The notes beneath the pieces are model-generated. The model saw only the letters and a program-made list of their open reading frames with translations. It did not search any database and was not told where the DNA came from. The translations under genes and the position numbers were made by a program. 64,000 nt of DNA from Alphaproteobacteria bacterium (GTDB lineage: Bacteria > Pseudomonadota > Alphaproteobacteria > SHVZ01), in NCBI GenBank assembly GCA_044223515.1, contig JBGALV010000002.1:64015-128014 (forward strand), in the 5' to 3' direction. Shown here piece after piece: positions 30,848 through 46,573 of the stretch; the first letter of the stretch is position 1, and each line of letters begins with the position of its first letter.

Positions 30848-31494
30848 GCTTCGGGCCACCCGAGAATCCCACTCGCCATCCGGGCCAACAGGATGACCAG
30901 GCCGATCGTGACCGCATGGACGCCCAGATCCATGAAGGTCACGTCGAACGGATGGAAGAACTGCAAAAGCACCGCCGCGATTGCAGCCACGCCGAGCCCG
31001 CCTGACACCGCGACCGGTGTCGGGTTCAGCGGCCGTGCCTTGGAAAGGACCAGGAGGAGTGCGGCACCGAGCGGCAGGCTGACGCCGAGCAGTAGGCGGA
31101 AACAGTCCGTGCTCTCGCCGAGCGTCCAGCCATCGGGGCCGAAAAGGATCCAGTGCTGCCAGCAGCTGTAACCGCTGGAGGCGATCCACAGGACCAGCGG
31201 CGGGATCGGCAGCCAAGCCCAGGACATCGACCGATCCGGCAGGCTGAGGTGGAAGGCGGCGACTATCGCCGCGATGCCGGTCAGCACGGTGCCGGCGAGT
31301 TCCAGGCGCAGCTTCGTTTCCTCGATGCGAGACATGAAGAGGGGCAGGTCGGCAAAGCTCGCAACCCCCAGCGCCGAGGCGAGGGCGACCACGCCCAGCC
31401 ACAAGCTTGCCCGCGTCGTCGGCGAGCGCAGACGCCTGACCGGGCGGCCGTCGGCAGCTAGATTCGCTATCAAGTCGTCGAGAGGCTCGGCCAT
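30829..31494 (-). CDS. nrsF: NrsF-family (DUF1109) membrane anti-sigma factor
   Basis: 221 aa with six TM segments and an N-terminal cytosolic region. It lies immediately downstream of, and coupled to, the ECF sigma gene, the same arrangement as Caulobacter sigF-nrsF. Confidence 0.75.
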   Translation of the reverse strand: MAEPLDDLIANLAADGRPVRRLRSPTTRASLWLGVVALASALGVASFADLPLFMSRIEETKLRLELAGTVLTGIAAIVAAFHLSLPDRSMSWAWLPIPPLVLWIASSGYSCWQHWILFGPDGWTLGESTDCFRLLLGVSLPLGAALLLVLSKARPLNPTPVAVSGGLGVAAIAAVLLQFFHPFDVTFMDLGVHAVTIGLVILLARMASGILGWPEAQASRG

Positions 31495-31495
31495 C

Positions 31496-32062
31496 CTATC
31501 CGCCCTTCAGCTTGGCCCGGAGCGCCTTGATCGCCCGGTGCACGTTGACCTTGAGACCCCCGACCGACTGGCCGCTCACCGCCGAGGCCTCCACCAGCGA
31601 CATCTCCTTCAGCTTCACCAGCTCCAGCGCCTCCCGCTGCCCGCGCGGAAGAGCCGCCAGCGCCGCAGCCAACTGGTCCGTCGCCTCGCGACCCTCCAGC
31701 TCCCTGTTCGCCAGGGGGTCGGCAAAGGTTTCATAAGAAGTGTCGTCCCGGATCTCCATCGTCTCGGTCCGGGTCCGGCGGCGGATCGCGTCGATCGAGC
31801 GGCGCCGAGCAACCGCCACCAGCCAGGGCATGAATGGCCGGCCAGGGTCGTAGGTGTGGCGGATGCGGTGGAGGGTCAGCAGCACGTCTTGGACGACGTC
31901 GTCGACCCGGTCCGCTCTTCGATGGTGATGGGCAACGACCGCACGCACCATCGGCACGATCTCCTTCAGCAGGCGCGCATAGTCCGCCTGATTGCCGTCC
32001 TGCGCCGAGGTCATCAGACCTACCCAACGCGGCTCGTCGCTCTGCCGCCCGCCTGCCGCCAT
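31496..32062 (-). CDS. sigF: ECF RNA polymerase sigma factor (SigF-type)
   Basis: Region 2 (DDVVQDVLLTLHRIRHTYDPGRPFMPWLVAVARRRSIDAIRR) and region 4 (LPRGQREALELVKLKEMSLVEASAVSGQSVGGLKVNVHRA) are present. Confidence 0.8.
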   Translation of the reverse strand: MAAGGRQSDEPRWVGLMTSAQDGNQADYARLLKEIVPMVRAVVAHHHRRADRVDDVVQDVLLTLHRIRHTYDPGRPFMPWLVAVARRRSIDAIRRRTRTETMEIRDDTSYETFADPLANRELEGREATDQLAAALAALPRGQREALELVKLKEMSLVEASAVSGQSVGGLKVNVHRAIKALRAKLKGG

Positions 32063-32106
32063 CCGCTCCTTCCCGGTTCACACACGCGTGACCACGATCG
32101 CCCTCT

Positions 32107-32131
32107 GTAACTTCCGCCGACATTCGGCGAA
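32107..32131 (+). promoter_or_regulatory. Candidate SigF-type ECF promoter (GTAACT-N15-CGAA) upstream of bufA
   Basis: tGTAACTtccgccgacattcggCGAAcc lies ~70 nt upstream of the bufA ATG. It matches the GTAACC-N16-CGAA pattern I recall for Caulobacter sigmaF-dependent promoters. That recollection is unverified. Confidence 0.4.
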
Positions 32132-32199
32132 CCGAAGGGCATGGGACGCCGGCAGGGGCCGACGCTTCCCCTCACCGAAGCATAAGAGGAGTTCGTAAC

Positions 32200-32481
32200 A
32201 TGCAGAAGCCTTCGCTCAAGACCGTCGCCGGCTCTACCCTTCTCGGCGCGCTCGCCGTCGCCGTCGTCTCGGTTGCCGCCGCCCAGGCGGCACCGGTCGC
32301 GCAGCCGATGGGATCGGAGAAGTGCTACGGCATCGCCAAGGCCGGCAAGAACGACTGCGCCGCCGCCGGCGCTCATTCCTGCGCCGGTCAGGCGACCAAA
32401 GACATGGACAAGGCCTCCTACGTCTACCTGCCGGCCGGCCTCTGCGCCAAGATCGCCGGCGGCAACATGGGGGCGATGTAA
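32200..32481 (+). CDS. bufA: DUF2282-family secreted Cys-containing precursor peptide (bufferin BufA1-like RiPP precursor)
   Basis: 93 aa with Sec signal peptide ...AAAQA, then a core with 4 Cys in conserved spacing (EKCYG, NDCAA, HSCAG, GLCAK). An AGGAG RBS is present. Confidence 0.75.
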
Positions 32482-32518
32482 GTCCGTATCCGCGCCGCCT
32501 GCTCGGAAGCTCACCGGC

Positions 32519-33376
32519 ATGTCCACCGATCGCATCCCGGCGTCCGCCGGCATCGGCCTCCGCTTCCCGCATCATCGGGAAGTCGCGGCAGAGCCCGGAG
32601 GCATCGCCTGGGTCGAGGTCCATCCGGAGAACTACATGGCGGGCGGCGCGGTGCTCGACCTGCTCGTCTCAATCCGCCGGGATCTGCCCGTCTCGCTTCA
32701 TGGCGTCGGGCTCTCGCTGGGGAGCGCCGCCGGCCTCGACCGCGATCATCTCGCGGGCCTCAGGAAGATGATCGACCGGATCGAGCCGGGGCTCGTTTCC
32801 GATCACCTTTCCTGGAGCGTCGCCGGTGGCGTCTATCTGCCCGACCTCCTGCCGCTTCCCTATACCGAGGAAGCGCTCGCGGTCGTCGCGGCCAACATCG
32901 ATCGCGCGCAAGAGGCGCTGAAGCGGCCGCTGCTGATCGAGAACCCGTCGCGCTATCTCGACTTCAAGCATGCGACCCTGTCCGAGGCCGAATTCCTGAC
33001 CGCGCTGGTGGAGCGTACCGGCTGCCGCCTGCTCTACGATCTCAACAACCTGCTGGTGAGCGCGCGGAACCTCGATAAGGATCCGCTCGCGTCCCTGTTC
33101 TCGATCCCGCTCGACGCAGTCGCCGAAATCCACCTCGCCGGGCATGCACGCAAGCGGCTCGACGACGGCAGCGAGATCCGGATCGACGACCATGGATCGG
33201 CGGTGTCGCCGGAAGTCTGGGATCTCTACAGCCGCTTCATCCATCGCGCCGAAGCGGTTCCGACGCTGATCGAATGGGACACCGCGCTGCCCGCCTTGAC
33301 GGTGCTGTGTGCCGAAGCGGCCAAGGCCCAGAGGTTCCTGGACATCGCCTCGACCGGAGAGCGTCGTGTCGCCTGA
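32519..33376 (+). CDS. bufB: DUF692 / MNIO (multinuclear non-heme iron oxidase, MbnB-TglH family) peptide-modifying enzyme
   Basis: TIM-barrel xylose-isomerase-like DUF692 motifs (GIGLRFPH..EVHPENYM..VSDHLSW..HLAGH..IEWDT). Confidence 0.8.
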   Translation: MSTDRIPASAGIGLRFPHHREVAAEPGGIAWVEVHPENYMAGGAVLDLLVSIRRDLPVSLHGVGLSLGSAAGLDRDHLAGLRKMIDRIEPGLVSDHLSWSVAGGVYLPDLLPLPYTEEALAVVAANIDRAQEALKRPLLIENPSRYLDFKHATLSEAEFLTALVERTGCRLLYDLNNLLVSARNLDKDPLASLFSIPLDAVAEIHLAGHARKRLDDGSEIRIDDHGSAVSPEVWDLYSRFIHRAEAVPTLIEWDTALPALTVLCAEAAKAQRFLDIASTGERRVA

Positions 33377-34112
33377 TCTCGCGACGCTGCAAGCCGACAT
33401 CGTGCGCATGATCCTCGCCGATGGCCGGATGGTTCCTTCGTTCCTGGACGACGACGCCGGGCTTAGGCTCGCCGTCTATCGCAACACCGCGCTCAGCGGC
33501 CTCTGCGACGCGCTCAGGCTCAGCTATCCACTGATCGAAAAGGTCGTCGGCACACCGTTCTTCGACCAAACCGCGCTCGCCTTCGCACGCGTGAACCCGC
33601 CGGCGGATCCGGTACTCGCCCGCTACGGCGCCGGCTTTCCGGCCTTCCTGGAATCCCTGTCGAGCCTCGCCGCCCTTCCCTACCTGCCGGACCTCGCCCG
33701 GCTCGAGTGGGCCATCGACCAAGTAGGCTACGAACCAACGGTGGAAGATCGCGGCGTCACGCTCGAGGTCGAAGGGCGCATCGCGACCGTGACGCTTAGC
33801 CCCTCACTCCGCCTGCTCGCGACGGCCACGAGCGTCCTCCCGCTCTGGCGGGCGCTCGACGCCGGCGACGACGAAGGGCTCGGAGCCGTGGACTGGAACG
33901 CCGGCCCGCAATTCCTGGCCGTCCACTATGGCAAGGACGGCGTCCGGATCACGCCGCTCTCGGAATCGGCGTGGCGCCTCGCCGCCGCTCTCCTCGCCGG
34001 CGACGATCTCGACATGGCGACCGAAGCAGCCGAGGCCGCGATCGAGCTTCTCTCCACCCCTTTCATTCGCATCGCCATAGCCGATCCTGACGGATCGATG
34101 AGGATCTCATGA
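33366..34112 (+). CDS. bufC: DUF2063 family protein (MNIO partner, BufC/MbnC-like)
   Basis: Follows DUF692 with an overlap. Sequence VSPDLATLQADIVRMIL...; the DUF2063-after-DUF692 architecture is conserved. The start is probably the GTG at 33366. Confidence 0.65.
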   Translation: MSPDLATLQADIVRMILADGRMVPSFLDDDAGLRLAVYRNTALSGLCDALRLSYPLIEKVVGTPFFDQTALAFARVNPPADPVLARYGAGFPAFLESLSSLAALPYLPDLARLEWAIDQVGYEPTVEDRGVTLEVEGRIATVTLSPSLRLLATATSVLPLWRALDAGDDEGLGAVDWNAGPQFLAVHYGKDGVRITPLSESAWRLAAALLAGDDLDMATEAAEAAIELLSTPFIRIAIADPDGSMRIS

Positions 34113-34567
34113 GCACGCTTGCCGCCGCCGGGTCGAACAGCCTCGGCCGTTCCGTCCGTACCGTCATCTCGGCCCTGGACGGGCTTCCCTGGACCGTCCT
34201 CGCTTTGCCGATGCGCCTCGCCGGCTTCGCCGTATTCTGGCGCGCCGGCATGGTCAAGCTCGCCAGCTGGGAGAGCACAGTCCTGCTGTTCCGTGAGGAG
34301 TACCAAGTGCCGGTGCTGCCGCCGGAGCTGGCGGCTTATCTCGCCACATCCGTCGAGCTCGGCTGCGCGATCGCGCTTCTGCTCGGGCTTCTGACGCGGT
34401 TCTCGGCGCTGGCGCTGCTCGGCCTGACCTCCGTGATCCAGCTCTTCGTCTATCCGGAGGCCTGGCCGACCCACATCCAATGGCTCGCCTTCCTGCTGCC
34501 GCTCCTCGCCCGCGGCGCCGGCGACCTGTCTCTCGATCATCTGATCGCCCGCAGGCTTGCCCGCTGA
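34109..34567 (+). CDS. DoxX family membrane protein
   Basis: 152 aa with 4 TM helices and DoxX-like sequence (..FAVFWRAGMVKL...LLGLTSVIQLFVYPEAW). Coupled to bufC (ATGA). Confidence 0.75.
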   Translation: MSTLAAAGSNSLGRSVRTVISALDGLPWTVLALPMRLAGFAVFWRAGMVKLASWESTVLLFREEYQVPVLPPELAAYLATSVELGCAIALLLGLLTRFSALALLGLTSVIQLFVYPEAWPTHIQWLAFLLPLLARGAGDLSLDHLIARRLAR

Positions 34568-34597: not shown

Positions 34598-35476
34598 ATG
34601 TTCTTCGAGGGCTTCTCACTCGAGACGGTCGAGGCCAACGGCCAGAAGATCCGCTTGCGCCGCGGCGGCAGCGGACCACCGCTCCTGCTGCTCCACGGCA
34701 ACCCACAGACCCATGCCATGTGGCACAAGGTGGCGCCGGTACTGGCCAGGCGCTTCGCCGTCATCTGCCCGGACATCAGAGGCTACGGCTTCTCCTCTTC
34801 GCCGCCGCCCACGCCCGACAGCCGCCACTACGCCAAACGCGAGATGGCGAAGGATCTGGTCGCGTTGATGAAGCACTTCGGCTTCCCGCGCTTCGGCGTG
34901 GTCAGCCACGATCGCGGCGCACGCGTCGCCCATCGGCTCGCCATCGATCATCCGGACGCGGTGGAGAGGCTCTGCGTCATGGACATCGTGCCGACGATCG
35001 AGCACTTCGAGCGCACCGAGATGGCCTTCGCGCTCGGCTACTATCACTGGTTCTTCCTGGCGCAGCCGTACGACAAGCCCGAACGCATGATCCTTCGGGA
35101 CGTCGAGGACTGGTTCGACAGCCATACGACGCGTGAACCCAAGGACAAGGGCTTCTTCCATCCCGAGGCGCGTGCCGACTACGTCGCTGCTTTGCGCGAG
35201 CCTGGCACCGTCGCCTCGATCTGCGAGGACTATCGGGCGGCGACGGGCATCGACCTCGTCCATGACCGAGGGAGCCGATCGGCCGGGCAACGCATCCACT
35301 GCCCTCTTCTCGTACTTTGGGGCGCCAAGGGCAAGATCGGCCAGTGGTACCAGCCGATCGAGCTGTGGCGGCGATATGCGGATGGACCAGTAACCGGCGG
35401 GCCGGTCGCCAGCGGCCACTACCTTGCCGAGGAAGCGCCGGACGAGACGATCGCCCGGCTCGACGCCTTCCTGTGA
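34598..35476 (+). CDS. alpha/beta-hydrolase haloacetate (fluoroacetate) dehalogenase-like protein
   Basis: Close in motif order to characterised fluoroacetate dehalogenases. It has LLLHGNPQTHAMW, nucleophile elbow VVSHDRGARVAHR (Asp nucleophile), YYHWFF and a C-terminal HY dyad. Confidence 0.7.
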   Translation: MFFEGFSLETVEANGQKIRLRRGGSGPPLLLLHGNPQTHAMWHKVAPVLARRFAVICPDIRGYGFSSSPPPTPDSRHYAKREMAKDLVALMKHFGFPRFGVVSHDRGARVAHRLAIDHPDAVERLCVMDIVPTIEHFERTEMAFALGYYHWFFLAQPYDKPERMILRDVEDWFDSHTTREPKDKGFFHPEARADYVAALREPGTVASICEDYRAATGIDLVHDRGSRSAGQRIHCPLLVLWGAKGKIGQWYQPIELWRRYADGPVTGGPVASGHYLAEEAPDETIARLDAFL

Positions 35477-35497: not shown

Positions 35498-37183
35498 CTA
35501 GTAGGTGTACCGCTGGATCGAGATCTGCCGGCCGCTCGGCAGCGTGATCGTGCCGGTGGTCGTCGAACTGAAGGTCATCGTCGTCGTGCCCCGGTTCGCG
35601 GTCGCGCTCGCGTTGCCCGACGATCCGGTCAGCGTCGGGCCGTTGCCGAACTCGAACAGGTCGCCCGACCAAGTCGAGGTCGAGCTCGACTGTCGCACCA
35701 GGTTGCCGGTTCCGACGTACCAGTTGGCCTGACCGCTGGCGCCGGTACTGCCATAGGCGTAGCCGACGGTGAAGAAATTAGAGGTCGTGGTCCCTCCGCT
35801 CGTCGTCGTGTTCTGGCTTTCGATCAGCCAGCCGGTGCCACTGTAGTCGGGCGACCACCACCAGCCCGTCTCCGGTGCCCAGCTCTGGGTCGAGCCGACG
35901 GTCGAACCGGTGAGCGGGTAGCGGACGAGGGCGTAGCTGGTCGAGCTGCCGCTGGTCGGCGTGATCGTGACGGTCGCCGCAGTCGACGAAGAGAAGGTCA
36001 CCGAGAAGGTGCCCGGCGAGGTCGTACTGGTCGGCGACGTGTTCGCGACACCGATGTTCGCCAAGGTGGTGCCGTTGGAAAACTGCTCGAGCGCGCCGGT
36101 GCAGGTGGTCGACCCCAGCATGCACGGGATCACGTACCAGACGTCGTCGCCGCCAGCGCCGTAGGTGTAGATGCCGATGAAAAGCTTCGAGGCGTTGGTC
36201 TCGATCGCGTAGCCGCGGCCCGAGGACGTGGTCGTGTACCAGAGCCCGTTCGCGGGCGTCGTCAGCGCGTAGGTGTTGCGCCCGGTAACCGATCGCGAGC
36301 CGCGGAAGCAGCCAACCGTGTACGGAAACTCTCGGTTGCCGTGATAGTGGTAGATATCCTTCACCTGCCCGTCGGCCTGGGTCACGCTGTGCTGGTGGCC
36401 ATGGCATTCGTCGAGCTCGGCATTGGTGATCGTCGAGCCGCTCGTACCCTTCGGCCCATAGATGCCGTAGCCGTCGAGCGCCCATCCCACCTGAACCGAA
36501 TGACCGGAGGTCGAGTCGGTAAAGCAGTTGGTCAGGTGGTGATAGTGGTAGGTACCGGTCGTCTCGGGGTGACCTTCGCACAGGTCCTGGATCTCGTTGG
36601 CGACGGCGTCGCGCCCATCCGCATCGAGCGCATCGAAAAGCATGCCGCCCGTGAACAGGTAGCCCACCTCGCCCGAGACGCAGGTCGGGGTCGACGAATA
36701 GACCGGATCGGACGGCAACTCGGCATAGCGCCGGCTGACCGCCATCGACGACGGGTTGGGGTGGTATTGAGCCTGCCCCGCCTCGCTCGAGGAAGAGACC
36801 GGGAAGGTGCCGGTGTAGTGGTTCGGCAGGCCGTTGCCGCCGAGATAGCGGATGCTGCCGCTGGTCACCTCGCGCGTCTGCGAGGTCCAGGCGTTCGAGC
36901 CCTCGACGATCGGCTTGCCCGAGAACGAGATGACGTTCGAGGAGCTGACCCAGGAGAAGCCGTAGCCGGACGTGCCGGAGGTGAAGCGGCAATGATAAAT
37001 GGTGTTTCGCGCTGCGGACCGCATCGAGACACCGTCGACCGCCGCCGTGCCGGTCGCTCCCTGCGCCTTGAATGTCGTGTAGGAGGTCACCGCCGGCGTG
37101 GCGATATCGGCCGCCGAGGCAATGCCCGATCCGGCGAGCAAAAGCCCAACAACCGCTCCGAGAGCGGACAGGCACGACTTCAT
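35498..37183 (-). CDS. secreted YHYH-motif protein with Thr/Ser/Gly-rich C-terminal region
   Basis: Signal peptide MKSCLSALGAVVGLLLAGSGIASA. Repeated YHYH motifs (GTYHYHHLTNC, DIYHYHGN). The C-terminal ~250 aa are ~40% Thr/Ser/Gly. A GGGGAG RBS is present. The longer 615-aa ORF start is unlikely. Confidence 0.6.
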   Translation of the reverse strand: MKSCLSALGAVVGLLLAGSGIASAADIATPAVTSYTTFKAQGATGTAAVDGVSMRSAARNTIYHCRFTSGTSGYGFSWVSSSNVISFSGKPIVEGSNAWTSQTREVTSGSIRYLGGNGLPNHYTGTFPVSSSSEAGQAQYHPNPSSMAVSRRYAELPSDPVYSSTPTCVSGEVGYLFTGGMLFDALDADGRDAVANEIQDLCEGHPETTGTYHYHHLTNCFTDSTSGHSVQVGWALDGYGIYGPKGTSGSTITNAELDECHGHQHSVTQADGQVKDIYHYHGNREFPYTVGCFRGSRSVTGRNTYALTTPANGLWYTTTSSGRGYAIETNASKLFIGIYTYGAGGDDVWYVIPCMLGSTTCTGALEQFSNGTTLANIGVANTSPTSTTSPGTFSVTFSSSTAATVTITPTSGSSTSYALVRYPLTGSTVGSTQSWAPETGWWWSPDYSGTGWLIESQNTTTSGGTTTSNFFTVGYAYGSTGASGQANWYVGTGNLVRQSSSTSTWSGDLFEFGNGPTLTGSSGNASATANRGTTTMTFSSTTTGTITLPSGRQISIQRYTY

Positions 37184-37338
37184 CGTCTCGACTCCCCAGT
37201 CAACCACCCCGTCCCAAGATAAAGGTTGAGTAAGCGCTAAGCCAAGTGTGCTTTGGAGCCCGGTATCGCTTGCCGCCGCACGTCTCCGCATGGACAATCG
37301 CGGTGCCGCAGTGCCTTCACGTCTCAGGATAATTCGCC

Positions 37339-38556
37339 ATGCCACACCCTCTCTCCGACCGCGCCAAGGACCTTGCCTCCCGGGTGACCCGGTTCATGGA
37401 TGCCCATGTCTACGAGGCCGAAGGTCCTTACAAGAGGCACACCGACGAGGCCGCCGACCGCTGGACCGTTCCGCCCGCGATGGACGAGCTCAAGGCCAAG
37501 GCAAAGGCGCAGGGGCTGTGGAACCTGTTCCTGCCCGAATCCGACCTGGGCGCGGGACTCACCAACAGCGAGTACGCGCCGCTCTGCGAGATCATGGGAC
37601 GCTCGCTGATCGGGGCCGAGGCCTTCAACTGCAGCGCGCCCGATACCGGCAACATGGAGGTGCTGGTCCGTTACGGCACGCCCGAGCAGAAGAAGGCATG
37701 GCTGGAGCCTCTGCTCGACGGCAAGATCCGGTCTGCCTTCTGCATGACCGAGCCCGATGTCGCCTCCTCGGACGCGACCAACGTTCGCTGCTCGATCGAG
37801 CGCGAGGGCAATAGCGGCTACGTCATCAACGGGCGCAAATGGTATGCGAGCGGAGCGATGGATCCGCGCTGCGAGATCTTCATCGTGATGGGGAAGACCG
37901 ACCCGAACGCGCCGAAGCACCAGCAGCAGTCCATGATCCTGGTCCCGCGCTCGACGCCCGGGGTCAAGATCATCCGTCCGATGCACGTGTTCGGCAGCGA
38001 CGACGCACCACACGGCCATGCAGAGATCGTCTTCGAGAACGTCAGGGTGCCGGCCGAGAACATCCTGCTCGGTGAGGGCCGCGGCTTCGAGATCGCGCAA
38101 GGCCGGCTCGGCCCCGGACGCATCCACCATTGCATGCGACTCATCGGCTGCGCCCAGCGCGCGCTCGAGCTGATGTGCATCCGCGCCCAGGAGCGCGTCG
38201 CCTTCGGCCGCAAGCTCGCCGATCACGGCCCGGTACGCGAGGAAATCGCGCGTTCGGCCTGCGAGATCGAGCAGGCGCGCCTTCTGACCCTGGCCGCTGC
38301 CGAGAAGATGGACAAGGAAGGCAACAAGTCGGCCCGCGACGCGATCGCGATGATCAAGATCGTTGCGCCGATGATGGCGCAGACCGTGATCGACCGTGCG
38401 ATCCAGATCCATGGGGCGATGGGCGTGAGCCAGGACACCTTCCTCGTAGATGCCTGGAAGTACGCGCGGACCATCCGGATCGCCGACGGTCCCGATGCCG
38501 TCCATCTCGCCGCACTCGGCAAGCAGGTGATCGGACGCTACGGGGTGAAGGCCTGA
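37339..38556 (+). CDS. acyl-CoA dehydrogenase family protein
   Basis: 405 aa with ACAD N-, middle and C-domains (..[14 protein letters not shown].. catalytic region; ..[11 protein letters not shown]..). Confidence 0.85.
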
Positions 38557-39578
38557 TGACGGGCGCCGGCCTGGTCGATCTCGACCGCCTGGTTCCCTTT
38601 CTGGAGGCAAATCTGCCGGGCTTCCGCGGACCGGCGTCCACCCGGAAATTCGCCAGCGGCCAGTCCAATCCGACCTTCCTGCTCGATGCGGCATCGGGCC
38701 GCTACGTGCTGCGGCGGAAGCCGTCAGGCACGCTGCTCAAGTCGGCGCACGCCGTCGAACGCGAATACCGGGTGATGAAGGCCCTGGCACCGACTGCGGT
38801 GCCCGTCCCTGCCGTGCATCTTCTTTGCGAGGATGCGAGCGTTCTCGGCACGGCGTTCTTCGTCATGGAGTTTCTCGACGGCCGGATCTTCTGGGATCCG
38901 GCGCTGCCAGAAATCGCGCGCGGCGACCGTGCCCCCTACTTTGGCGAGATGGCACGCGTGCTGGGCGAGCTCGCGAAGCTCGACACGACCGCCGCGGGTC
39001 TCGCCGACTATGGCCGGGCCGGCGGCTATGTCGAGCGCCAGATCTCGCGCTGGGTCCAGCAGTATCGGGCCTCGGAGACGGAGAAGGTCCAGGACATGGA
39101 GGACCTGATCGCGTGGTTGGTCAGCCGATCGGCGCCGGATGACGGCGTCTCGCTTGTCCATGGCGACATCCGCTTCGACAACGTCGTGTTCCACCCGACC
39201 GAGCCACGGATCATCGGCATGCTCGATTGGGAGCTGTCGACGCTGGGCACCCCGCTCGTCGACGTCACCTATTTCTGCACGATGCTGCGCCTGCCGCGCA
39301 CGAACCAGGTGAAGGGATTGGCCGGCCTCGATCGCGCCGAACAGGGTCTTCCGACCGAGCAGGCCTTCCTCAGCGAGTTTCTTCGCCATTCCGGATTCAG
39401 GGGGCAGGTCGACTGGCCATTCTGGATCGCCTTCCACGCCTTCCGCTTCGCCGCGATCTCTCAAGGCGTCAAGAAGCGGCGGATCGACGGGAACGCGTCG
39501 AGCGAAAGCGCAGGCGGGGTCGGCGACATGGTCGCCGTTTCGGCCAAGCTCGGGCTCGACGCAGCCTCCGGGACTTAG
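38556..39578 (+). CDS. APH-family phosphotransferase (aminoglycoside phosphotransferase-like kinase, ACAD10/11 N-domain-like)
   Basis: Kinase motifs: Brenner-like VHGDIRFDNVVFHP (HGD..N) and DWELSTLG (DxE). The ATG overlaps the ACAD stop (TGATG). Confidence 0.8.
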   Translation: MTGAGLVDLDRLVPFLEANLPGFRGPASTRKFASGQSNPTFLLDAASGRYVLRRKPSGTLLKSAHAVEREYRVMKALAPTAVPVPAVHLLCEDASVLGTAFFVMEFLDGRIFWDPALPEIARGDRAPYFGEMARVLGELAKLDTTAAGLADYGRAGGYVERQISRWVQQYRASETEKVQDMEDLIAWLVSRSAPDDGVSLVHGDIRFDNVVFHPTEPRIIGMLDWELSTLGTPLVDVTYFCTMLRLPRTNQVKGLAGLDRAEQGLPTEQAFLSEFLRHSGFRGQVDWPFWIAFHAFRFAAISQGVKKRRIDGNASSESAGGVGDMVAVSAKLGLDAASGT

Positions 39579-39582
39579 GGCC

Positions 39583-40395
39583 TTACTCGGCGGCGATGAC
39601 GGGCGGCGCCTTCCAGCGGTAGCCGAAGGACGGGTAGTTCTCGATCTCGTCGAAGTTGGCGTCGACCGCGCGGAACTTGTCGCGGATCCGACGCATCGCC
39701 GATCGCACGTTGGTGCGGAAGCCGTTGTCGCCAGCACCCGCGATGAAGCCGGCCCGATGGACGCAGTCGTAAAGCGCGCGGTAGGTCGCATGCTCACCGA
39801 CGCTCGCCGCCAGCATCCGGACGATATTGTACTCGGTTACGGTCAAATTGACGTCGATGCCGTCCCAATAGGCTCGACCAACCTTGGCCCGGAGCAACAG
39901 CCGGCCGCGATGAATGTCCTCGGCGGTGGCCGGCCTGAGCCTGACGCCTTCGGCCTCGACGGCCAGCTTGATGCGCTTGGTCAGGATGTCGGTGCCGCGC
40001 GACTTGTCGACGAAGTCGACGGCCCCTTGATCCAGCGCCGCCGCCTCGAAGGATCGCTCGGGCATGCCGGTCAGGAAGATCGTCGGCATGGCTGCGCCCT
40101 GATTGCGCATCCGGCTCAGGAGATCGATGCCGCTCATCGACGGCATCTTCCAGTCCAGAATGACCACGTCGGCCGGGCCGCCGCCTGCGAGGTGGCGAAG
40201 AAGGTCGCCGCCTTCCGCGAAGGCAGTGACCTCGAACCCGTTGTCGGCGAGGCCACCTTTGACCATCTCGCGGAATCGATCGTCGTCATCGACCAGGGCA
40301 ACACGGATCTTGTCCACGATCCGAGCCTGCTCTGCCGGCGCCGGACCGGGGCCGGCACCGGACGTGGCGACGACCTTCTGAAGGATTGTCATCAT
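39583..40395 (-). CDS. OmpR-family two-component response regulator (receiver plus winged-helix), orphan
   Basis: Receiver (VALVDDDDRFREMV...DVVILDWKMPSMSGIDLL..) and winged helix (..LTVTEYNIVRML..). A GAGGG RBS is present. No kinase gene is adjacent. Confidence 0.8.
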   Translation of the reverse strand: MMTILQKVVATSGAGPGPAPAEQARIVDKIRVALVDDDDRFREMVKGGLADNGFEVTAFAEGGDLLRHLAGGGPADVVILDWKMPSMSGIDLLSRMRNQGAAMPTIFLTGMPERSFEAAALDQGAVDFVDKSRGTDILTKRIKLAVEAEGVRLRPATAEDIHRGRLLLRAKVGRAYWDGIDVNLTVTEYNIVRMLAASVGEHATYRALYDCVHRAGFIAGAGDNGFRTNVRSAMRRIRDKFRAVDANFDEIENYPSFGYRWKAPPVIAAE

Positions 40396-40845
40396 CGGAT
40401 ACCCTCGCCGTCCTTGTCGATGCTTCGTCCCTGTGACGAAGTCGTGCTGTTTCCCTAGAACGGCGGAGAAGGCTTCCGGTTCAACGGACTTCTTTAACAA
40501 GCTCAATGTTCGAGAAACCGGGACTCCTGGTCGAGGCGGGCAAAGAACTGGTCCGCCCGGTCGGCTTCGCCGGCCCGGCACATGAACCCGACACTGGCCA
40601 ACCACTCCGCCAATTCGGGCGACGGCCTCGACCTGGCAGCCTGGCTTTGCTGCCGCCTCAACCCGCTCGGTGCACGAAGCCGGTTCACCACCCAGCACGG
40701 GCCAGCCGAAGCCAACGAGCACCATGCAGGCCGCGGTCACGATGACGGATGTCAGCGGCGACCGATCGATCGCCTTGGCCGAGCGGTCGAGGACGGCGGC
40801 GGCGTTGGCACGCGCAACGGGTTCACGGCCAGCTCTATGATGCCC

Positions 40846-41405: not shown

Positions 41406-42407
41406 ATGCTGGCTAAACCGGGATTTCGGTTACTCGCCTCGCGTCTCAAGTCCACGAGCAAGACGGTCCGAAAAGCGATTTTCCCGGTGGGTGGACTCGG
41501 AACGCGTTTCCTGCCGGCAACCAAGGCGGTTCCGAAGGAAATGCTGCCGGTCGTGGATAAGCCCTTGATCCAGTACGCAGTCGAGGAAGCCCTCGCCGCC
41601 GGCATCGAGGAGTTCATCTTCGTCACCAGCCGCGGCAAGGAAGCGATCCAGGATCACCTCGATCGAAGCCAGGATCTGGAGACAGCCCTTCTGTCGCGCG
41701 GAAAGAAAAACGAAGCGGCCGCTCTCAACACGTGGCTGCCCGAGCCGGGCAAGGTCACCTTTCTCCGCCAGCCGAAGCCGCGTGGTCTCGGCCACGCCGT
41801 GTGGTGCGCCCGGTCCCAGATCGGCAACGAGCCGTTCGCGGTCATTCTCCCCGACGACCTGATCCTTGCGGTCACACCTTGCTTGCGCCAAATGATCCAC
41901 GCCCACGCCCAGGTCGGCGGCAACCTCCTGGCACTGATGCCGGTTCCTCGCGCTCATATCTCACGCTATGGCGTCATCGACCCGGTGACACAGCATGGAC
42001 GCCTGATCGAAGCCAGCGGCGTGGTCGAGAAGCCGCCCGCGGAACGCGCGCCATCGGCGCTCGCCGTGATCGGCCGCTACATCCTGCAGCCCGATATCTT
42101 CCGGTACCTCGAAGAGGTGGAACCGGGTGCCGGCGGAGAAATCCAGCTCACCGACGCGATCGCGAGGATGATCTCCGACCACGCATTGCACGGCTACCGC
42201 TTCGACGGACGACGCTTCGATTGCGGCGACAAGCTCGGTTTTCTCGAAGCGAACCTCGCCTTCGCACTCGGACGAGCCGACCTCGCCGAAGGTGCCGCAG
42301 AAATCCTTCAGCGATATGCGCATCCGCACGCGGAGCCGGAATTCGATCAGGAGATCGTACCGAATCCGCTTCCCGCGGCTTCGAACGGCGTTCGCATCAG
42401 GGCCTAG
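41406..42407 (+). CDS. galU: UTP--glucose-1-phosphate uridylyltransferase
   Basis: KAIFPVGGLGTRFLPATKAVPKEMLPVVDKPLIQY is the signature N-terminal nucleotide-binding motif of GalU. Confidence 0.85.
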   Translation: MLAKPGFRLLASRLKSTSKTVRKAIFPVGGLGTRFLPATKAVPKEMLPVVDKPLIQYAVEEALAAGIEEFIFVTSRGKEAIQDHLDRSQDLETALLSRGKKNEAAALNTWLPEPGKVTFLRQPKPRGLGHAVWCARSQIGNEPFAVILPDDLILAVTPCLRQMIHAHAQVGGNLLALMPVPRAHISRYGVIDPVTQHGRLIEASGVVEKPPAERAPSALAVIGRYILQPDIFRYLEEVEPGAGGEIQLTDAIARMISDHALHGYRFDGRRFDCGDKLGFLEANLAFALGRADLAEGAAEILQRYAHPHAEPEFDQEIVPNPLPAASNGVRIRA

Positions 42408-43027
42408 GCTCGCGCCGACGCACGGCGACCAACGTTTTGCCGCCCGTCCGTCATGCGCCGTAGCGCCTCGCGGCCGCGTGACAACCGCGACATGACAGTG
42501 CCGATCGGCAGGTCGAGCACCTGGGCAGTTTCCTCGTAGCTGAGGCCTTCAAGACCGACCAGCATCACCACCCGATGCTGCTCGACGGGCAAGGATTCGA
42601 GCGCGCGCGCAAGATCGCGAAGCTCGATCGCGGCAGGCTGCGATGCGGGCTGCGGCAAGGAACCGGCGACCTCGTCGAAGTCTACCGCGTCCGTCGTCTC
42701 GGCGCGGCGGCTCACCTGATCGACATGGACGTTGTGCAGGACAGTGAAGAGATAGGCCCGCACATTCCGGATGTCGGCCGGAAAATTGGGCCGCGAAAGC
42801 GCGCGCGCCAGGCATTCCTGCACCAGGTCGTCGGCATCGCCGCGACCGGCAGACAGAACACGCGCGTATCGGCGGAGATCGGCAACGTACCGCTCCACCC
42901 CACTGGGTGAATTGCTCACGATTGGCCCCCTGCCCTCGAGGTCGGCGCCGCGATGGGCGCCGACGCGGTCTGCGTCCCTCAAGAAATAAAGATCCGGGAC
43001 CCGCGGCAGCGTGACATTGCCCGACAC
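42404..43027 (-). CDS. ECF sigma factor (sigma-70 family), no adjacent anti-sigma
   Basis: Region 2 (DADDLVQECLARAL..AYLFTVLHN) and region 4 (LPVEQHRVVMLVGLEGLSYEETAQVLDLPIGTVMSRLSRGREAL). The true start is probably internal to the 207-aa ORF. Confidence 0.7.
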   Translation of the reverse strand: MSGNVTLPRVPDLYFLRDADRVGAHRGADLEGRGPIVSNSPSGVERYVADLRRYARVLSAGRGDADDLVQECLARALSRPNFPADIRNVRAYLFTVLHNVHVDQVSRRAETTDAVDFDEVAGSLPQPASQPAAIELRDLARALESLPVEQHRVVMLVGLEGLSYEETAQVLDLPIGTVMSRLSRGREALRRMTDGRQNVGRRASARA

Positions 43028-43290
43028 GGCAGTGACAAATCTGGGATCGCTTCGGAAAGCCGTCGCACCCCACGAAGTTCTATGAAGAAATATGCGGGAG
43101 ACGGCGGAATAAAGCTCCGCTGTCCAGGTCTGTCTGGTCGAGAGAGCTTTGAGACGCGGCCTGCTAGTCCAGTCGGCAGGCCGATGTTCGAAAGGCGACG
43201 GGACCCATACCTACGGCGACTCCCCCCTGCCGCCCATAGGGTACCGTCGCTGCCGGCGCGCCGCCCACCCCGGCGCGCCGGCCTCTTCTT

Positions 43291-43611
43291 CTAAATCTTC
43301 GAAATCGGCAGCGTCAGGACGAGAAACGACAGCGATTTGCCGTGGCCGTCGAGATTCAGGCTGCCATTCACGCCGCCCTCGAGGGCGTCGTCGATGACGA
43401 AGTTGAGCGCCTTGAGCAGTGGCAGCTCGTAGCGCCGCACCTCGCTGGCTCCCCGCCCCGCGAACAAGGCCTTCACCCTTTCCGGCGTCACCTGCTCGAG
43501 CAGCAGCGGATAGTCTTCTCTTCGGTAGGCGATGACGCTGACGTTGAGCCGGTTGCCTTTGTCGCCGGTCCGCGCATGCGCGATCTCGTGAAGAGGAACA
43601 TCGGCCATCAC
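43291..43611 (-). CDS. DUF4387-like small protein (AtuA-associated ferredoxin-fold partner)
   Basis: 106 aa, coupled downstream of the DUF1446 gene. It contains ..HARTGDKGN.., typical of this partner family. Confidence 0.55.
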   Translation of the reverse strand: MMADVPLHEIAHARTGDKGNRLNVSVIAYRREDYPLLLEQVTPERVKALFAGRGASEVRRYELPLLKALNFVIDDALEGGVNGSLNLDGHGKSLSFLVLTLPISKI

Positions 43612-44984
43612 GCGGCTCCCGTCAGGATCGAGATTGCAGGTCGGATCGACGCCACCGGCACATAGGCCGAGACGGTCCTCACGCGCCCGGTGACCGTTGT
43701 CCGAACGCCCGCCCCTCCGGCGGGCCCGGTCGGATAGAGCGACAGGACTTCACGGGCGATGCGGTCAGCGGTCGCGCGATCGTCCGACGTGCCGGAAAGC
43801 CGGACCCTATAGTCGCCGTCGGGTGGCGGCGCGGCGGACCGTCGGCGGATTCCACCGTCGCTGTCGAAGATGCTGACCGCGCCGATGACGTCGCAGCGCA
43901 CCGGCTGGTTGATGCCGAGCGTCTTGATCCTCTTGAGCAGAACCTCGGCGGCAAGTTCGGCGCGGGCCAGTGCGTTGGGGCCAGCATAGGAGATCTCGCC
44001 TTCGGCAAGGAAACCGCCTTCCAGGCTGACGGTGACCTTATAGGTCGGCGGTGGGGGTGCGCCGCGCACGCCTTGAATGCGCACGCGGTCCCGAGCCTCG
44101 GTCTCCAGCCGGACCCCGGTGATATCCATCGTCACATCCGGTGTCAGGTATGCCTTGGGATCGTGCAGTTCGTAGAGCATCTGCTCGGTGACCGTCGCCT
44201 CCGAGACCAGGCCGCCTGTGCCCGCCGGCTTTGTGACGACCATCGCGCCGTCCCTCGCCACCTCGACAATCGGAAAACCGACGCGATCGAGATCGGGGAT
44301 ATCCTTCCGGCCCGGATCGGCAAAGTAACCGCCGCTCACCTGGGCGCAGCACTCGATCAGGTGGCCGGCGAGGACACCGGCTGCGATCCGGTCCCAGTCC
44401 GGCGGGGCCCAGCCGAACTCATGTAGGAGCGGGCCGAGCACGAGCGCCGAATCCGTGCAGCGCCCGGTGACGACGACATCGGCGCCTTTGGCAAGGGCCT
44501 GAGCGATGGGTTGTGCGCCGAGATAGGCGTTGGCGGCGATAATGTCGCGCCCGCTCAAGTTCGCTCGCTCGTCGTTAGGCCAACCACGGACCGCGTCGGC
44601 TCCGAGTGTCGCCAGAAGATCGTCGCCTTCGACGACCGCGACCTTGAGACCGGACAGGCCGAGTTCACCAGCGACGTCCAGCACGCGCCTGCCCGCGGCC
44701 ATCGGATTTGCAGCACCGAAATTGGCCACGATCCGGATTCCTGATCGCAGGCACTTCGCGAGAATGGGCCTAAGGAAATCGGCAAGGTACGGCGTGAAGC
44801 CGGCTCCCGGATCGCGCCGACGATCGAGCTGGGCCAGCGCCAGCGTCCGTTCAGCCAAGGTCTCGAAGATCAAGTAGGACGGCACGCCGGAAGAAGCGAG
44901 CGCGTCGACCACCGGCCCGGAGGCATCCGTCCGGTCACCGGAAAATCCGGCGCCGCACCCGACATGAACACGATCCGGCGCCAT
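43608..44984 (-). CDS. DUF1446 / acyclic-terpene-utilization AtuA-family protein
   Basis: 458 aa. MAPDRVHVGCGAGFSGDR... with a GxGxxG start is characteristic of the AtuA family. Confidence 0.6.
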   Translation of the reverse strand: MAPDRVHVGCGAGFSGDRTDASGPVVDALASSGVPSYLIFETLAERTLALAQLDRRRDPGAGFTPYLADFLRPILAKCLRSGIRIVANFGAANPMAAGRRVLDVAGELGLSGLKVAVVEGDDLLATLGADAVRGWPNDERANLSGRDIIAANAYLGAQPIAQALAKGADVVVTGRCTDSALVLGPLLHEFGWAPPDWDRIAAGVLAGHLIECCAQVSGGYFADPGRKDIPDLDRVGFPIVEVARDGAMVVTKPAGTGGLVSEATVTEQMLYELHDPKAYLTPDVTMDITGVRLETEARDRVRIQGVRGAPPPPTYKVTVSLEGGFLAEGEISYAGPNALARAELAAEVLLKRIKTLGINQPVRCDVIGAVSIFDSDGGIRRRSAAPPPDGDYRVRLSGTSDDRATADRIAREVLSLYPTGPAGGAGVRTTVTGRVRTVSAYVPVASIRPAISILTGAA

Positions 44985-45194
44985 CTCATGCCCCTCTCAA
45001 GCCCTTGTTTTGACTGTGCGGTCGACCCTTCCGACGGGTCAACCGGAAGGGCATCGCGCGGAAACAGGGGTACCTAGGTGCCGTGACAGCTAAACCCCAG
45101 CCAAATCACTGAAATGCCACACGTGATTAGCCAATTCTAAGGCGTGACAGCGGCAAGCCTTGCCACGGTTTTCAAATATAAAAGAGGCCTCCCC

Positions 45195-45782
45195 ATGAGC
45201 GCGATGATGCATGAAGACATTCTCGACTGCCTTCCCCACATCAACGGTTTCGCGCGACGGCTGACCCGCGACCGAGCGATGGCCGACGATCTGGTGCAGA
45301 CCGCGGTCATGCGGGCGCTCGCCCATGCCCACCAGTACAAGCCGGGCACCAATTTTCGGGCCTGGATCACCACCATTCTCCGCAACTCTTACTTCAACGA
45401 GATGCGGGCCCTGAGCCGGCGTCCGAGCGTCGACATCGACGTCGAGGGCATCGCCGCGATCACCAGCGGCGGCCAGGAAGAGCGCATGAATGTTCGCGAC
45501 TTTTGCCGTGCTTTCCGCCGCCTGTCGGCCGAGCAGCAGAAGGCCCTCCTTCTGGTCGGCCTGGACGGCCGTTCCTATGAGGAAGCCGCGGAGATCGCCA
45601 ACTGCGCCGTCGGCACCATGAAGAGCCGCGTCTCTCGCGCCCGCCTTCAGCTCCAGCAACTGCTGGAAGGCAGCGGCGCGAAGCTGTCGATGCTGCCGAT
45701 CGCGCTGGCCGCCGCCAGCGCCGACGAGGACCGTCCGCGCCGCCGCCGCGCCGCGGCGAAGGACCAGCCGACCGCCCACTAA
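45195..45782 (+). CDS. ECF sigma factor, candidate EcfG-type general stress sigma
   Basis: Region 2 DDLVQTAVMRAL..FRAWITTILRNSYFNEMR and region 4 LSAEQQKALLLVGLDGRSYEEAAEIANCAVGTMKSRVSRAR. An AAAAGAGG RBS precedes ATG 45195. It sits in the phyR-nepR stress island. Confidence 0.7.
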   Translation: MSAMMHEDILDCLPHINGFARRLTRDRAMADDLVQTAVMRALAHAHQYKPGTNFRAWITTILRNSYFNEMRALSRRPSVDIDVEGIAAITSGGQEERMNVRDFCRAFRRLSAEQQKALLLVGLDGRSYEEAAEIANCAVGTMKSRVSRARLQLQQLLEGSGAKLSMLPIALAAASADEDRPRRRRAAAKDQPTAH

Positions 45783-45807
45783 CGTCGATCCCAACGGCCC
45801 CTCCAGA

Positions 45808-45840
45808 CGCCCGCCGGCTTCCGGCGGGCGTCGTCGTTTG
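45808..45840 (+). terminator. Intrinsic terminator after ECF sigma gene
   Basis: Stem CGCCCGCCGG-cttc-CGGCGGGCG, then TCGTCGTTTG. Confidence 0.5.
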
Positions 45841-45950
45841 AGCTCTTCGATGCTTGAATCCTCGCAACCATTCGCACCGAGCGACGGTTGATCACCCGAC
45901 GACGCCTGCGACGCGGCAGGTCGCTCCAAGATCAGTTTCGGAGGAGAGAA

Positions 45951-46367
45951 ATGCTTAAGATTCTTCTCTTGAGCGCCGCAGTGACGACCGGCATTGCCGC
46001 GCCGTCCTTCGCCCAGACTCAGCCGTCGACCTCGCCCAGCGCTCCCGCCACGACCATGCCGGTGACGCCTCCGGTCACGGGACCTGCGCCGGGTGCGATC
46101 AAGGGCAGCACCCTCATCAACATGGACGTCAAGAATGGCGCGGACGAGAAGGTCGGCGATATCAACGACGTGATCGTGGCCGCGGACGGCAAGGTCCAGC
46201 AGGTGATCATTTCTGTCGGCGGTTTCCTCGGCGTGGGAACCCGCAAGGTGGCGGTCGCCTGGAACGACGTGAAGGTCGACACCGCTGCCGACGTGGCGTT
46301 CGTGAACCTCTCACGCGAGCAGCTGGCGGCCGTGCCCGAGTTCAAGGACCGTCGCACCACGCCGTAA
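45951..46367 (+). CDS. secreted PRC-barrel domain protein
   Basis: Signal peptide MLKILLLSAAVTTGIAAPSFA. PRC-barrel core ..LINMDVKNGADEKVGDINDVIV..DGKVQQVIISVGGFLGVG.. GGAGGAG RBS. Confidence 0.7.
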   Translation: MLKILLLSAAVTTGIAAPSFAQTQPSTSPSAPATTMPVTPPVTGPAPGAIKGSTLINMDVKNGADEKVGDINDVIVAADGKVQQVIISVGGFLGVGTRKVAVAWNDVKVDTAADVAFVNLSREQLAAVPEFKDRRTTP

Positions 46368-46573
46368 AGAGATCCTCGGGGCTCCTCGCCTCTCGGGGAC
46401 TGAGGAGAGGACACACCGAGGTCTGGCGCCTCTCCGGCCGCTTCGGCGGATCGGAGAGGCGCCGGTCGCATTTCAGGACCCTCCGTGCATCTACGCCGGC
46501 GTCAATTCCCCACGTCCATAAAAGAAAACGGCCAGGCGATGCCTGGCCGTTTCTCCAAGCAGGCTTGAACCGT

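Follow-up and report, generated by a model that had tools for sequence, protein, structure and literature searches.

An acyl-CoA dehydrogenase (ACAD) gene and a gene for a kinase of the aminoglycoside phosphotransferase (APH) type lie next to each other, and overlap, in a 64,000-nucleotide stretch of contig JBGALV010000002.1 of an Alphaproteobacteria bacterium (referred to here as the window). The eukaryotic ACAD10 and ACAD11 proteins carry the same two modules in one polypeptide, which raises the question whether this pair is a split bacterial counterpart of ACAD10/11 that acts on 4-hydroxyacyl-CoAs, as was proposed in a sequence-only reading of the locus. The genes and the features assigned to them are listed in Table 1. 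At the junction (...GGCC TGATG ACG...) the ACAD stop codon TGA (38554-38556) and the kinase start codon ATG (38556-38558) have a single base, A38556, in common, and the overlap noted in the earlier reading was thereby borne out. We infer that the two genes are co-translated, and the overlap is consistent with translational coupling.

Table 1. Features of the ACAD-kinase gene pair and its upstream region (positions in the window)
Feature	Position	Strand	Remark
Divergent intergenic region, presumed operon promoter region	37183..37338	.	Promoter inferred from position only
AGGA, possible ribosome-binding site	37326..37329	+	9 nt before ACAD ATG; read from sequence
ACAD gene	37339..38556	+	ATG to TGA, 405 aa
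GAAGG, possible kinase ribosome-binding site	38547..38551	+	Within ACAD 3' end, 4 nt before ATG
TGATG stop/start overlap	38554..38558	+	Read from sequence; fits translational coupling ACAD to kinase
APH-fold kinase gene	38556..39578	+	ATG start, 340 aa

Both reading frames carry the coding GC pattern of the window (overall GC 65.7%), with GC at the three codon positions of 0.65/0.46/0.87 in the ACAD gene and 0.68/0.48/0.84 in the kinase gene. Two long antisense open reading frames (37324-38694 and 38724-39797) have low GC at the third position, a shadow pattern. The true start of the kinase is ATG 38556, because almost all of the nearest homologues in the database have a length of 340 amino acids and the identical TGATG is kept in all seven of the closest genome loci that span the junction (L001-L004 and L006-L008). 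An in-frame TTG further upstream (38130) is ruled out on the same grounds. At the position of the possible kinase ribosome-binding site, AAGG or AGGG is kept in these seven loci, which is weak evidence for such a site since the same bases encode the C-terminus of the ACAD. Each of the two families has one copy in the window.

The ACAD protein shows the three-domain acyl-CoA dehydrogenase fold in a Pfam search (Acyl-CoA_dh_N, 3.9e-12; Acyl-CoA_dh_M, 1.8e-18; Acyl-CoA_dh_1, 8.1e-37). Its best match in the PDB is mouse ACAD11 (8v3u; 452 bits, E 1.6e-134), and the second-best distinct relative is a bacterial protein deposited as 'putative acyl-CoA dehydrogenase' (4hr3; 449 bits). Human ACAD11 (2wbi) scored 446 bits and ordinary ACADs at most 138 bits. 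Aligned end to end, the protein is 54.8% identical to residues 374-765 of mouse ACAD11. Asp383 in the motif RIADGPD aligns with Asp753 of mouse ACAD11 (RLADGPD) and replaces the usual catalytic Glu; the mutant chain 8v3v has an Asn in this column of the alignment. A helix of 13 residues ("HCMR" helix, residues 255-267) is identical in the two proteins. Mapped against the residues described by Rashan et al. (2025), Arg256, Arg261, His264 and Arg267 correspond to Arg626, Arg631, His634 and Arg637 of ACAD11, and His227 to His597. Substitution of Arg626, His634 or Arg637 in ACAD11 abolishes phosphate elimination (Rashan et al., 2025). The product of 37339..38556 is thus predicted from its residues to be a 4-phosphoacyl-CoA phosphate-eliminating enzyme of the ACAD10/11-LvaC type.

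The kinase belongs to the Pfam family APH (PF01636, E 1.8e-48), and the HGDxxxxN and DxE motifs are intact, as the sequence-only reading had stated (HGDIRFDN, residues 202-209; DWE, residues 224-226). Its best match in the PDB is an APH-like protein of Cupriavidus pinatubonensis (3dxp; 317 bits, 45.7% identity), followed by the kinase domain of mouse ACAD11 (244 bits, E 2.4e-71), to which it is 40.1% identical over residues 18-352 in an end-to-end alignment, and by 9o56 (161 bits). Antibiotic and other APH proteins scored at most 34 bits, including 3ats (34) and capreomycin phosphotransferase (21.7). Grouping with antibiotic APH(3') enzymes had been named as the outcome that would speak against the proposal, and this is not what was found: the NCBIfam model APH_3p gave 29 bits with a cutoff of 205. 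Asp204 and Asn209 align with Asp220 and Asn225 of ACAD11. Arg53, the beta3 Arg in YVLRRKP, takes the place of a Lys and pairs with the alphaC Glu. Arg69 and Glu70 in EREY are the CoA-contacting Arg and the alphaC Glu; under the numbering of the PDB chain, the published 'R86' is offset by two residues from the Arg that aligns with Arg69. Arg161 in YVERQ aligns with YCKRQ as the equivalent of Arg176. All 120 homologues among the matches listed are 362 amino acids or shorter (most 338-362, with two shorter fragments) and have kinase-type Pfam domains only, without an ACAD domain. The kinase falls in a similarity class (class A; 40-51% mutual identity) that includes the eukaryotic kinase domain, and members of this class are about 30% identical to a second class that is also linked to ACADs (class B). 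The product of 38556..39578 is predicted to be an ATP:4-hydroxyacyl-CoA 4-O-kinase of the ACAD10/11 type. Both proteins align over their full length with the corresponding module of mouse ACAD11, the species used for this comparison, and keep the diagnostic residues, which upholds the earlier description of the pair as a split counterpart of ACAD10/11 with the ACAD gene in front.

Co-occurrence of the gene pair, which had been suggested as a check, was surveyed from both sides. Among 72 genome loci with a homologue of the kinase, the ACAD gene precedes the kinase gene on one strand in 22 and is found on the other strand, no more than 6 kb away, in a further 14. Stop and start overlap in 18 of the 22 loci, and 4-base overlaps (ATGA or GTGA) occur in 10 more distant loci. 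The gap analysis used as kinase start the in-frame start nearest to the ACAD stop, a choice that favours small gaps. Adequate flanks were available for 61 of the kinase loci. The kinase is linked to an ACAD in 36 of these 61 and no ACAD11-type gene is within reach in the other 25, so that the kinase family is not strictly tied to this type of ACAD. On the ACAD side, 59 metagenome loci were used, in which the ACAD had 2 kb or more of flank on each side or a kinase match was present, and an APH kinase was found within 6 kb in 48 of them; percentages from either side are rough, since the loci were chosen by peptide patterns and include many near-identical lineages. Because the adjacency of the two families recurs across many lineages, it is not due to chance. 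Neighbouring genes of the relatives encode short-chain dehydrogenases (SDR), FadB-like hydratase/dehydrogenases, MaoC and thiolase, which are CoA- and beta-oxidation-related functions, and an SDR gene adjoins the kinase or the ACAD gene in many of them. The survey showed pairs that overlap, pairs that diverge, and the orders ACAD-SDR-kinase and ACAD-thiolase-kinase, and the kinases were of two classes.

The residues implicated in the mammalian ACAD10/11 enzymes are all conserved in the aligned window pair, and entry of 4-hydroxy fatty acids into beta-oxidation is very probably the function of this pair; a two-gene stand-alone operon with this role is the reading in which we have good confidence. 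In the proposed mechanism, the kinase would use ATP to phosphorylate the 4-hydroxyl group of a 4-hydroxyacyl-CoA, with Asp204 as the base, Asn209 and Asp224 (of DWE) binding the metal, and Arg69 and Arg161 contacting the CoA moiety. The ACAD-fold enzyme would bind the resulting 4-phosphoacyl-CoA, its phosphate held by the helix with Arg256, His264 and Arg267. With Asp383 as the base and FAD transiently redox-active, phosphate would be eliminated to give 2-enoyl-CoA. This product is an ordinary intermediate of beta-oxidation.

Other readings of the pair were weighed against this one. The ACAD might be a conventional alpha,beta-dehydrogenase and the kinase an unrelated phosphotransferase for a small molecule or an antibiotic that is merely its neighbour, which would agree with the generic Pfam families (ACAD and APH) and with public labels that say no more than acyl-CoA dehydrogenase or phosphotransferase family protein. 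We consider this extremely unlikely, given the Asp in place of the catalytic Glu in IADGPD and the phosphate-binding residues of the HCMR helix, and since no activity of ACAD10/11 on C6-C22 acyl-CoAs was detected in the cited literature. The low score with the APH(3') model argues against an antibiotic phosphotransferase, and linkage and overlap that are conserved across distant lineages argue against a mere neighbour. It is also conceivable that the physiological substrate of the kinase is a non-CoA lipid alcohol, 1-O-alkylglycerol or a related glycerolipid; CoA would then merely activate the enzyme, and the connection with the ACAD would be regulatory or incidental. Phosphorylation of chimyl alcohol in vitro is reported for the kinase domains of ACAD10/11 and for several prokaryotic homologues in purified form, in some cases only with acetyl-CoA (Ye et al., preprint 2025-26), and the 25 kinase loci without a nearby ACAD11-type gene would fit such a role. 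However, the kinase gene is probably coupled in translation to that of an ACAD whose phosphate-binding helix is sensible only for a phosphorylated acyl-CoA, the CoA-contacting arginines are conserved, and a kinase from Burkholderia pseudomallei acts on 4-hydroxyhexanoyl-CoA (PMC11342911). In the relatives the neighbouring genes belong to beta-oxidation or encode SDRs and are not those of glycerolipid metabolism, and among the window ORFs scanned no ether-lipid gene was found, which together make a glycerolipid substrate improbable.

A narrower role, restricted to 4-hydroxyvaleryl-CoA from levulinic acid, is suggested by Pseudomonas putida. According to later papers that cite Rand et al. (2017) (PMC12440821, PMC11342911, PMC6692424), its lva operon, which is dedicated to levulinate, encodes the kinase LvaA, the small partner protein LvaB, the ACAD LvaC, the SDR LvaD and the CoA ligase LvaE, and LvaA(B) and LvaC convert 4-hydroxyacyl-CoA via 4-phosphoacyl-CoA to enoyl-CoA. 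LvaA and LvaC are the founding bacterial members, homologues of lvaABCD have been reported in Alpha-, Beta- and Gammaproteobacteria, the split into kinase and ACAD is the same as in the window, and LvaC has the catalytic Asp and active-site residues in common with ACAD10/11. The window operon differs in that the ACAD gene comes first and overlaps the kinase gene by one base, and it is without an LvaB partner, an LvaD-type SDR, an LvaE ligase and an LvaR regulator. There is no room for an LvaB-like third gene either between the overlapping genes or beyond them, where a divergent YHYH-domain gene and a convergent response regulator gene flank the operon. The reported identity of LvaA to the ACAD10/11 kinases is no more than 29%, against 40% between the window kinase and mouse ACAD11, and the window kinase belongs to the ACAD10/11-like similarity class. 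A levulinate-specific role is therefore very unlikely.

In B. pseudomallei, the kinase Q63VL0 and the ACAD Q63VL1 can stand in for the corresponding parts of human ACAD10 in vitro, with 4-hydroxyhexanoyl-CoA as the substrate (Paquay et al., 2024; PMC11342911). Like the window pair, these are separate bacterial proteins of the ACAD10/11-like type, and their consecutive accessions suggest that the genes are adjacent. Their host is a betaproteobacterium, unlike that of the window pair; 3dxp, the closest solved relative of the window kinase, is from the related C. pinatubonensis. In the eukaryotic proteins (8v3u, 8v3v, 2wbi) the kinase is N-terminal to the ACAD, whereas the window has two ORFs in the reverse order. 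ACAD10 in addition has a HAD domain, and the eukaryotic proteins carry organelle-targeting signals. The proposal of a bacterial 4-hydroxyacyl-CoA module was thus supported by sequence, but it amounts to a rediscovery, as the split pair had already been described and assayed (LvaA/LvaC; Q63VL0/Q63VL1). The window pair adds one more ordinary case, poorly annotated so far, of a pathway that had been demonstrated in Pseudomonas and Burkholderia, and it opens no new question because both the chemistry and its occurrence in bacteria have been published.

The surroundings of the operon were analyzed for genes that could supply its substrate and for signs of regulation. The upstream intergenic region extends from the likely start of the minus-strand YHYH-domain gene (Met near 37183) to the ACAD start; in the YHYH ORF a signal-peptide-like stretch, MKSCLSALGAVVGLLLAGSGIASA, starts 54 codons after the first GTG. 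The convergent response regulator gene lies 4 nt downstream of the pair, further neighbours in the window encode an NTP transferase, an ECF sigma factor and AtuA, and the flanking genes are unrelated to the pair. No CoA ligase, SDR, lactonase, hydratase partner or LvaR regulator was found in the operon or in the flanking window ORFs scanned. Possible sources of the 4-hydroxy acids are gamma-lactones, products of lipid peroxidation and reduced 4-oxo acids. An alpha/beta hydrolase gene (34598-35476) was rejected as a partner, as a gene on the opposite strand stands between it and the operon. A megablast search of the pair against plasmids gave partial matches to the ACAD gene only (73-77% identity).

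The pair adjoins a PhyR/EcfG general-stress locus. A search of 37183..37338 for sigma-70-like and EcfG-like promoter motifs gave no match, and a promoter and terminator scan of 36900-39900 gave one promoter-like and one terminator-like site, each of which lies within coding sequence, a yield that shuffled sequences equalled. The EcfG motif (GGAAC N15-18 CGTT) has two matches in the window, which is no more than expected by chance, and none is near the operon, so that general-stress control is without sequence support. Given this location and the lack of substrate-supplying genes, the pair might serve the housekeeping clearance of 4-hydroxy acids derived from lipid peroxidation and not a growth-substrate pathway. 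The overlap may also set the stoichiometry for a non-covalent complex of an ACAD tetramer and kinase dimers that channels 4-phosphoacyl-CoA, and the pair would then represent the ACAD11 assembly in its ancestral, unfused form. Both suggestions are speculative, and we hold them to be unlikely.

The value of the pair lies in annotation. That its function is rarely annotated was correct, as public labels are generic for both families ('acyl-CoA dehydrogenase family protein' and 'phosphotransferase / aminoglycoside phosphotransferase family protein'). The sequence permits a specific prediction, a 4-hydroxyacyl-CoA kinase together with a 4-phosphoacyl-CoA phosphate-eliminating enzyme, where the kinase is otherwise open to misreading as an antibiotic-resistance gene. 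The layouts and the two kinase classes could guide the choice of enzymes for biochemistry and for engineering of levulinate or gamma-lactone utilization. The PDB entries 3dxp, itself deposited as 'putative acyl-CoA dehydrogenase', 4hr3 and 9o56 ('aminoglycoside phosphotransferase') carry no functional assignment; for 9o56 our guess is identity with the Caldalkalibacillus thermarum kinase studied by Ye et al.

We identified in the window an acyl-CoA dehydrogenase (ACAD) gene that overlaps a gene for an APH-fold kinase by one base, a pair which very probably encodes a kinase and a phosphate-eliminating ACAD that together take 4-hydroxyacyl-CoA into beta-oxidation. The junction reads GGCC-TGATG-ACG, in which the ACAD stop codon TGA (38554-38556) and the kinase start codon ATG (38556-38558) have one base in common. 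GC3 is 0.87 in the ACAD frame and 0.84 in the kinase frame, both with the GC profile by codon position that genuine genes have (window 65.7% GC), and the long antisense ORFs across the pair show a shadow pattern. Each gene occurs once within the window. The kinase starts at ATG 38556, because its nearest homologues in sequence, among the matches listed, are almost all 340 aa long and because TGATG is identical in all seven closest genome loci that span the junction. The upstream in-frame TTG 38130 was ruled out on the same two grounds. The coordinates and the TGATG overlap given in the sequence-only reading were correct; through this overlap, translation of the kinase is probably coupled to that of the ACAD.

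The database names of these proteins are generic. Pfam searches found three ACAD domains in the 405-aa protein and the APH phosphotransferase family in the 340-aa protein (E 1.8e-48). Among solved structures, the ACAD matched best the mouse form of ACAD11 (8v3u, residues 374-765, E 1.6e-134), which like ACAD10 is a eukaryotic kinase-ACAD fusion, followed by the bacterial orphan 4hr3 and the ACAD domain of human ACAD11 (2wbi); these three scored approximately 446-452 bits, against 138 bits for the best conventional ACAD. The kinase matched 3dxp (317 bits), the mouse ACAD11 kinase domain (8v3v, residues 18-352, 244 bits) and 9o56 (161 bits), and all other structures, including a M. tuberculosis APH-like protein and capreomycin phosphotransferase, scored at most 34 bits. 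The alignment to ACAD11 suggested in the sequence-only reading gave 54.8% identity for the ACAD and 40.1% for the kinase with the respective mouse domains; the kinase is 45.7% identical to 3dxp. Grouping of the kinase with antibiotic APH(3') enzymes had been named as evidence against an ACAD10/11-type pair; the NCBIfam APH(3') model scored 29 bits with a cutoff of 205, and this test therefore does not refute the assignment.

The ACAD domain of ACAD10/11 has a catalytic Asp (D753) instead of the usual Glu, and a helix in the 'HCMR region' of ACAD11 forms salt bridges to the 4-phosphate through R626, H634 and R637, replacement of which halts phosphate elimination, with R631 and H597 as further contributors (Rashan et al., PMC12440821). 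By alignment, the window ACAD has the equivalents H227, R256, R261, H264, R267 and D383 (in IADGPD), and a 13-residue stretch that includes R256, R261, H264 and R267 is identical to mouse ACAD11. In the ACAD11 kinase, D220 and N225 are catalytic and CoA is contacted by R176 and by the Arg beside the alphaC Glu (Rashan et al., PMC12440821); in the kinase family a beta3 Arg replaces Lys, with the alphaC Glu as its partner, and a DWE motif binds metal (Ye et al., PMC13596139). The aligned window kinase carries R53, R69-E70, R161, D204 and N209 in HGDIRFDN, and D224-W-E226, so that the motifs pointed out from the sequence are intact (the paper's R86 lies two positions off the aligned Arg by PDB-chain count). 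By homology, the kinase would move the ATP gamma-phosphate onto the 4-OH of 4-hydroxyacyl-CoA, R256, H264 and R267 of the ACAD-fold enzyme would hold the 4-phospho group, and D383 with FAD as a transiently reduced cofactor would eliminate phosphate, releasing 2-enoyl-CoA to beta-oxidation.

Linkage of the two families was surveyed from both sides, using loci picked by peptide patterns, many of the marine ones near-identical. One genome per species was scanned for the kinase, giving 76 loci, 72 of which have a clear kinase homologue. An ACAD11-type ACAD lies directly upstream on the same strand in 22 of the 72 and, in 14, up to 6 kb away on the other strand; 11 loci were too short to judge. If the kinase is assumed to begin at whichever in-frame start codon is closest to the end of the ACAD gene, the two genes overlap in 18 of the 22 same-strand loci (seven TGATG, ten ATGA or GTGA, one of 8 bases) and three more have a gap of 0-6 nt. 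Among 80 ACAD-anchored metagenome loci, 21 of them too short to judge, an APH kinase lies no more than 6 kb away in 48, and 11 show none across a flank of 2 kb or more on each side. The layout ACAD, a gene of ~0.9-1.1 kb encoding an SDR, kinase is found in 33, and one other locus has a thiolase in the middle. Recurrent kinase neighbours are FadB-like enoyl-CoA hydratase/3-hydroxyacyl-CoA dehydrogenase, MaoC dehydratase and thiolase. The expected co-occurrence of the two genes was thereby borne out, and family scores, diagnostic residues and linkage together support an ACAD10/11-type pair with activities predicted by homology. The same active-site substitutions, family scores and conserved linkage make it highly improbable that the ACAD is a conventional dehydrogenase and its neighbour an unrelated or antibiotic kinase.

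No ACAD11-type ACAD was found near the kinase in 25 of the 72 loci (flank at least 3 kb), and a preprint reports phosphorylation of 1-O-alkylglycerols by ACAD10/11 kinase domains and by several prokaryotic homologues, some of which needed acetyl-CoA for it (Ye et al., PMC13596139). A different or additional substrate is therefore conceivable; that the window gene is an alkylglycerol kinase is nevertheless unlikely, as it is probably coupled to an ACAD with the phosphate-binding residues and its homologues lie among beta-oxidation genes. According to three papers (PMC12440821, PMC11342911, PMC6692424), P. putida LvaA acts together with LvaB to phosphorylate 4-hydroxyvaleryl-CoA and LvaC takes the phosphate off; lvaABCD homologues are noted in Alpha-, Beta- and Gammaproteobacteria. 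In contrast to this levulinate operon, the window pair lacks LvaB, LvaD, LvaE and LvaR, has the overlapping order ACAD then kinase, and has a kinase that is more ACAD10/11-like (40% identity versus 29% reported for LvaA). With these accessory genes absent, a levulinate-specific role is quite improbable. Entry of 4-hydroxyacyl-CoA into beta-oxidation is the preferred reading.

Unlike ACAD10/11, the pair is unfused and has the reverse order. In vitro, purified B. pseudomallei kinase Q63VL0 and ACAD Q63VL1 each stand in for the corresponding portion of ACAD10 (Paquay et al., PMC11342911). Because these and the P. putida enzymes (LvaA/LvaC) are already published, the split bacterial form proposed in the sequence-only reading is known and the window pair is a further example. 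Its novelty is low, since this chemistry and its presence in bacteria have both been described before; what it mainly offers is improved annotation and a catalogue of operon layouts.

The kinases that adjoin ACAD11-type ACADs fall into two similarity classes. Class A comprises the window kinase, 3dxp, marine kinases and mouse ACAD11 (mutual identity 40-51%); class B is ~30% identical to class A and the window kinase and ~48% within the class, and may be an LvaA-like branch. Class B kinases (L130, 7240-9485; L132, L140, L144, L147) are either oriented divergently to the ACAD, 80-113 nt away from it, or follow a thiolase. The closest genomes to the window are uncultured Alphaproteobacteria (L001: ACAD 97%, kinase 89% identity). 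In the marine metagenome loci L084-L124 (e.g., L100, 5992-9141) ACAD, SDR and kinase lie on one strand, and some keep the ACAD-SDR pair with no kinase in reach; this SDR may, like LvaD, supply 4-hydroxyacyl-CoA from 4-oxoacyl-CoA. Kinase homologues that share 42-53% identity with the window kinase but lack an ACAD11-type gene in the surrounding 3 kb or more (L013-L015, L018, L022, L026, L055, L058-L062 and others) include those of SAR86, Nitratireductor and Pseudohongiella lineages; several are immediately preceded by an SDR gene or followed by one for a DUF4864 protein.

Features of the window around the ACAD-kinase pair
Feature	Position	Strand	Remark
NrsF anti-sigma	30829-31494	-	
ECF sigma	31496-32062	-	beside NrsF
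DUF2282 Cys-rich precursor	32200-32481	+	93 aa, signal peptide; divergent from NrsF/ECF sigma
MbnB/TglH/ChrH DUF692 enzyme	32273-33376 (ORF)		true start probably near 32515; divergent from NrsF/ECF sigma
DUF2063	33309-34112		divergent from NrsF/ECF sigma
DoxX	34109-34567		divergent from NrsF/ECF sigma
ACAD	37339-38556	+	ATG start, 405 aa
Kinase	38556-39578	+	ATG start, 340 aa
Response regulator	39583-40740	-	receiver domain, weak Trans_reg_C; convergent, 4 nt between its stop and the kinase stop
ECF sigma	42404-43027	-	PhyR_sigma2 match
ECF sigma, second	45144-45782	+	
PRC-barrel protein	45888-46367	+	
PRC-barrel protein	46574-47041	-	
PhyR anti-anti-sigma response regulator	47045-47992	-	
plsX (FA_synthesis) and fabH (KAS III)	61561-63635	-	housekeeping lipid synthesis

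The pair stands alone: its operon includes neither a CoA ligase nor an SDR, lactonase or hydratase, and scans for promoters, terminators and EcfG-type motifs gave nothing notable around it. Its divergent upstream neighbour encodes a secreted YHYH-domain protein (likely start near 37183). The plsX and fabH genes indicate a chromosomal rather than a mobile context. The 385-aa ORF of the response regulator probably starts too far upstream, because the protein annotated on an identical contig is 270 aa long. Approximately 3 kb downstream of the operon, 42404-47992 has the look of a general stress response locus of Alphaproteobacteria. The cluster at 30829-34567 resembles a bufferin-type RiPP cluster. 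AtuA (458 aa, E 6e-138) and an adjoining AtuA ferredoxin-like protein (106 aa), of the acyclic-terpene-utilisation family, are encoded at 43291-44984 on the reverse strand.
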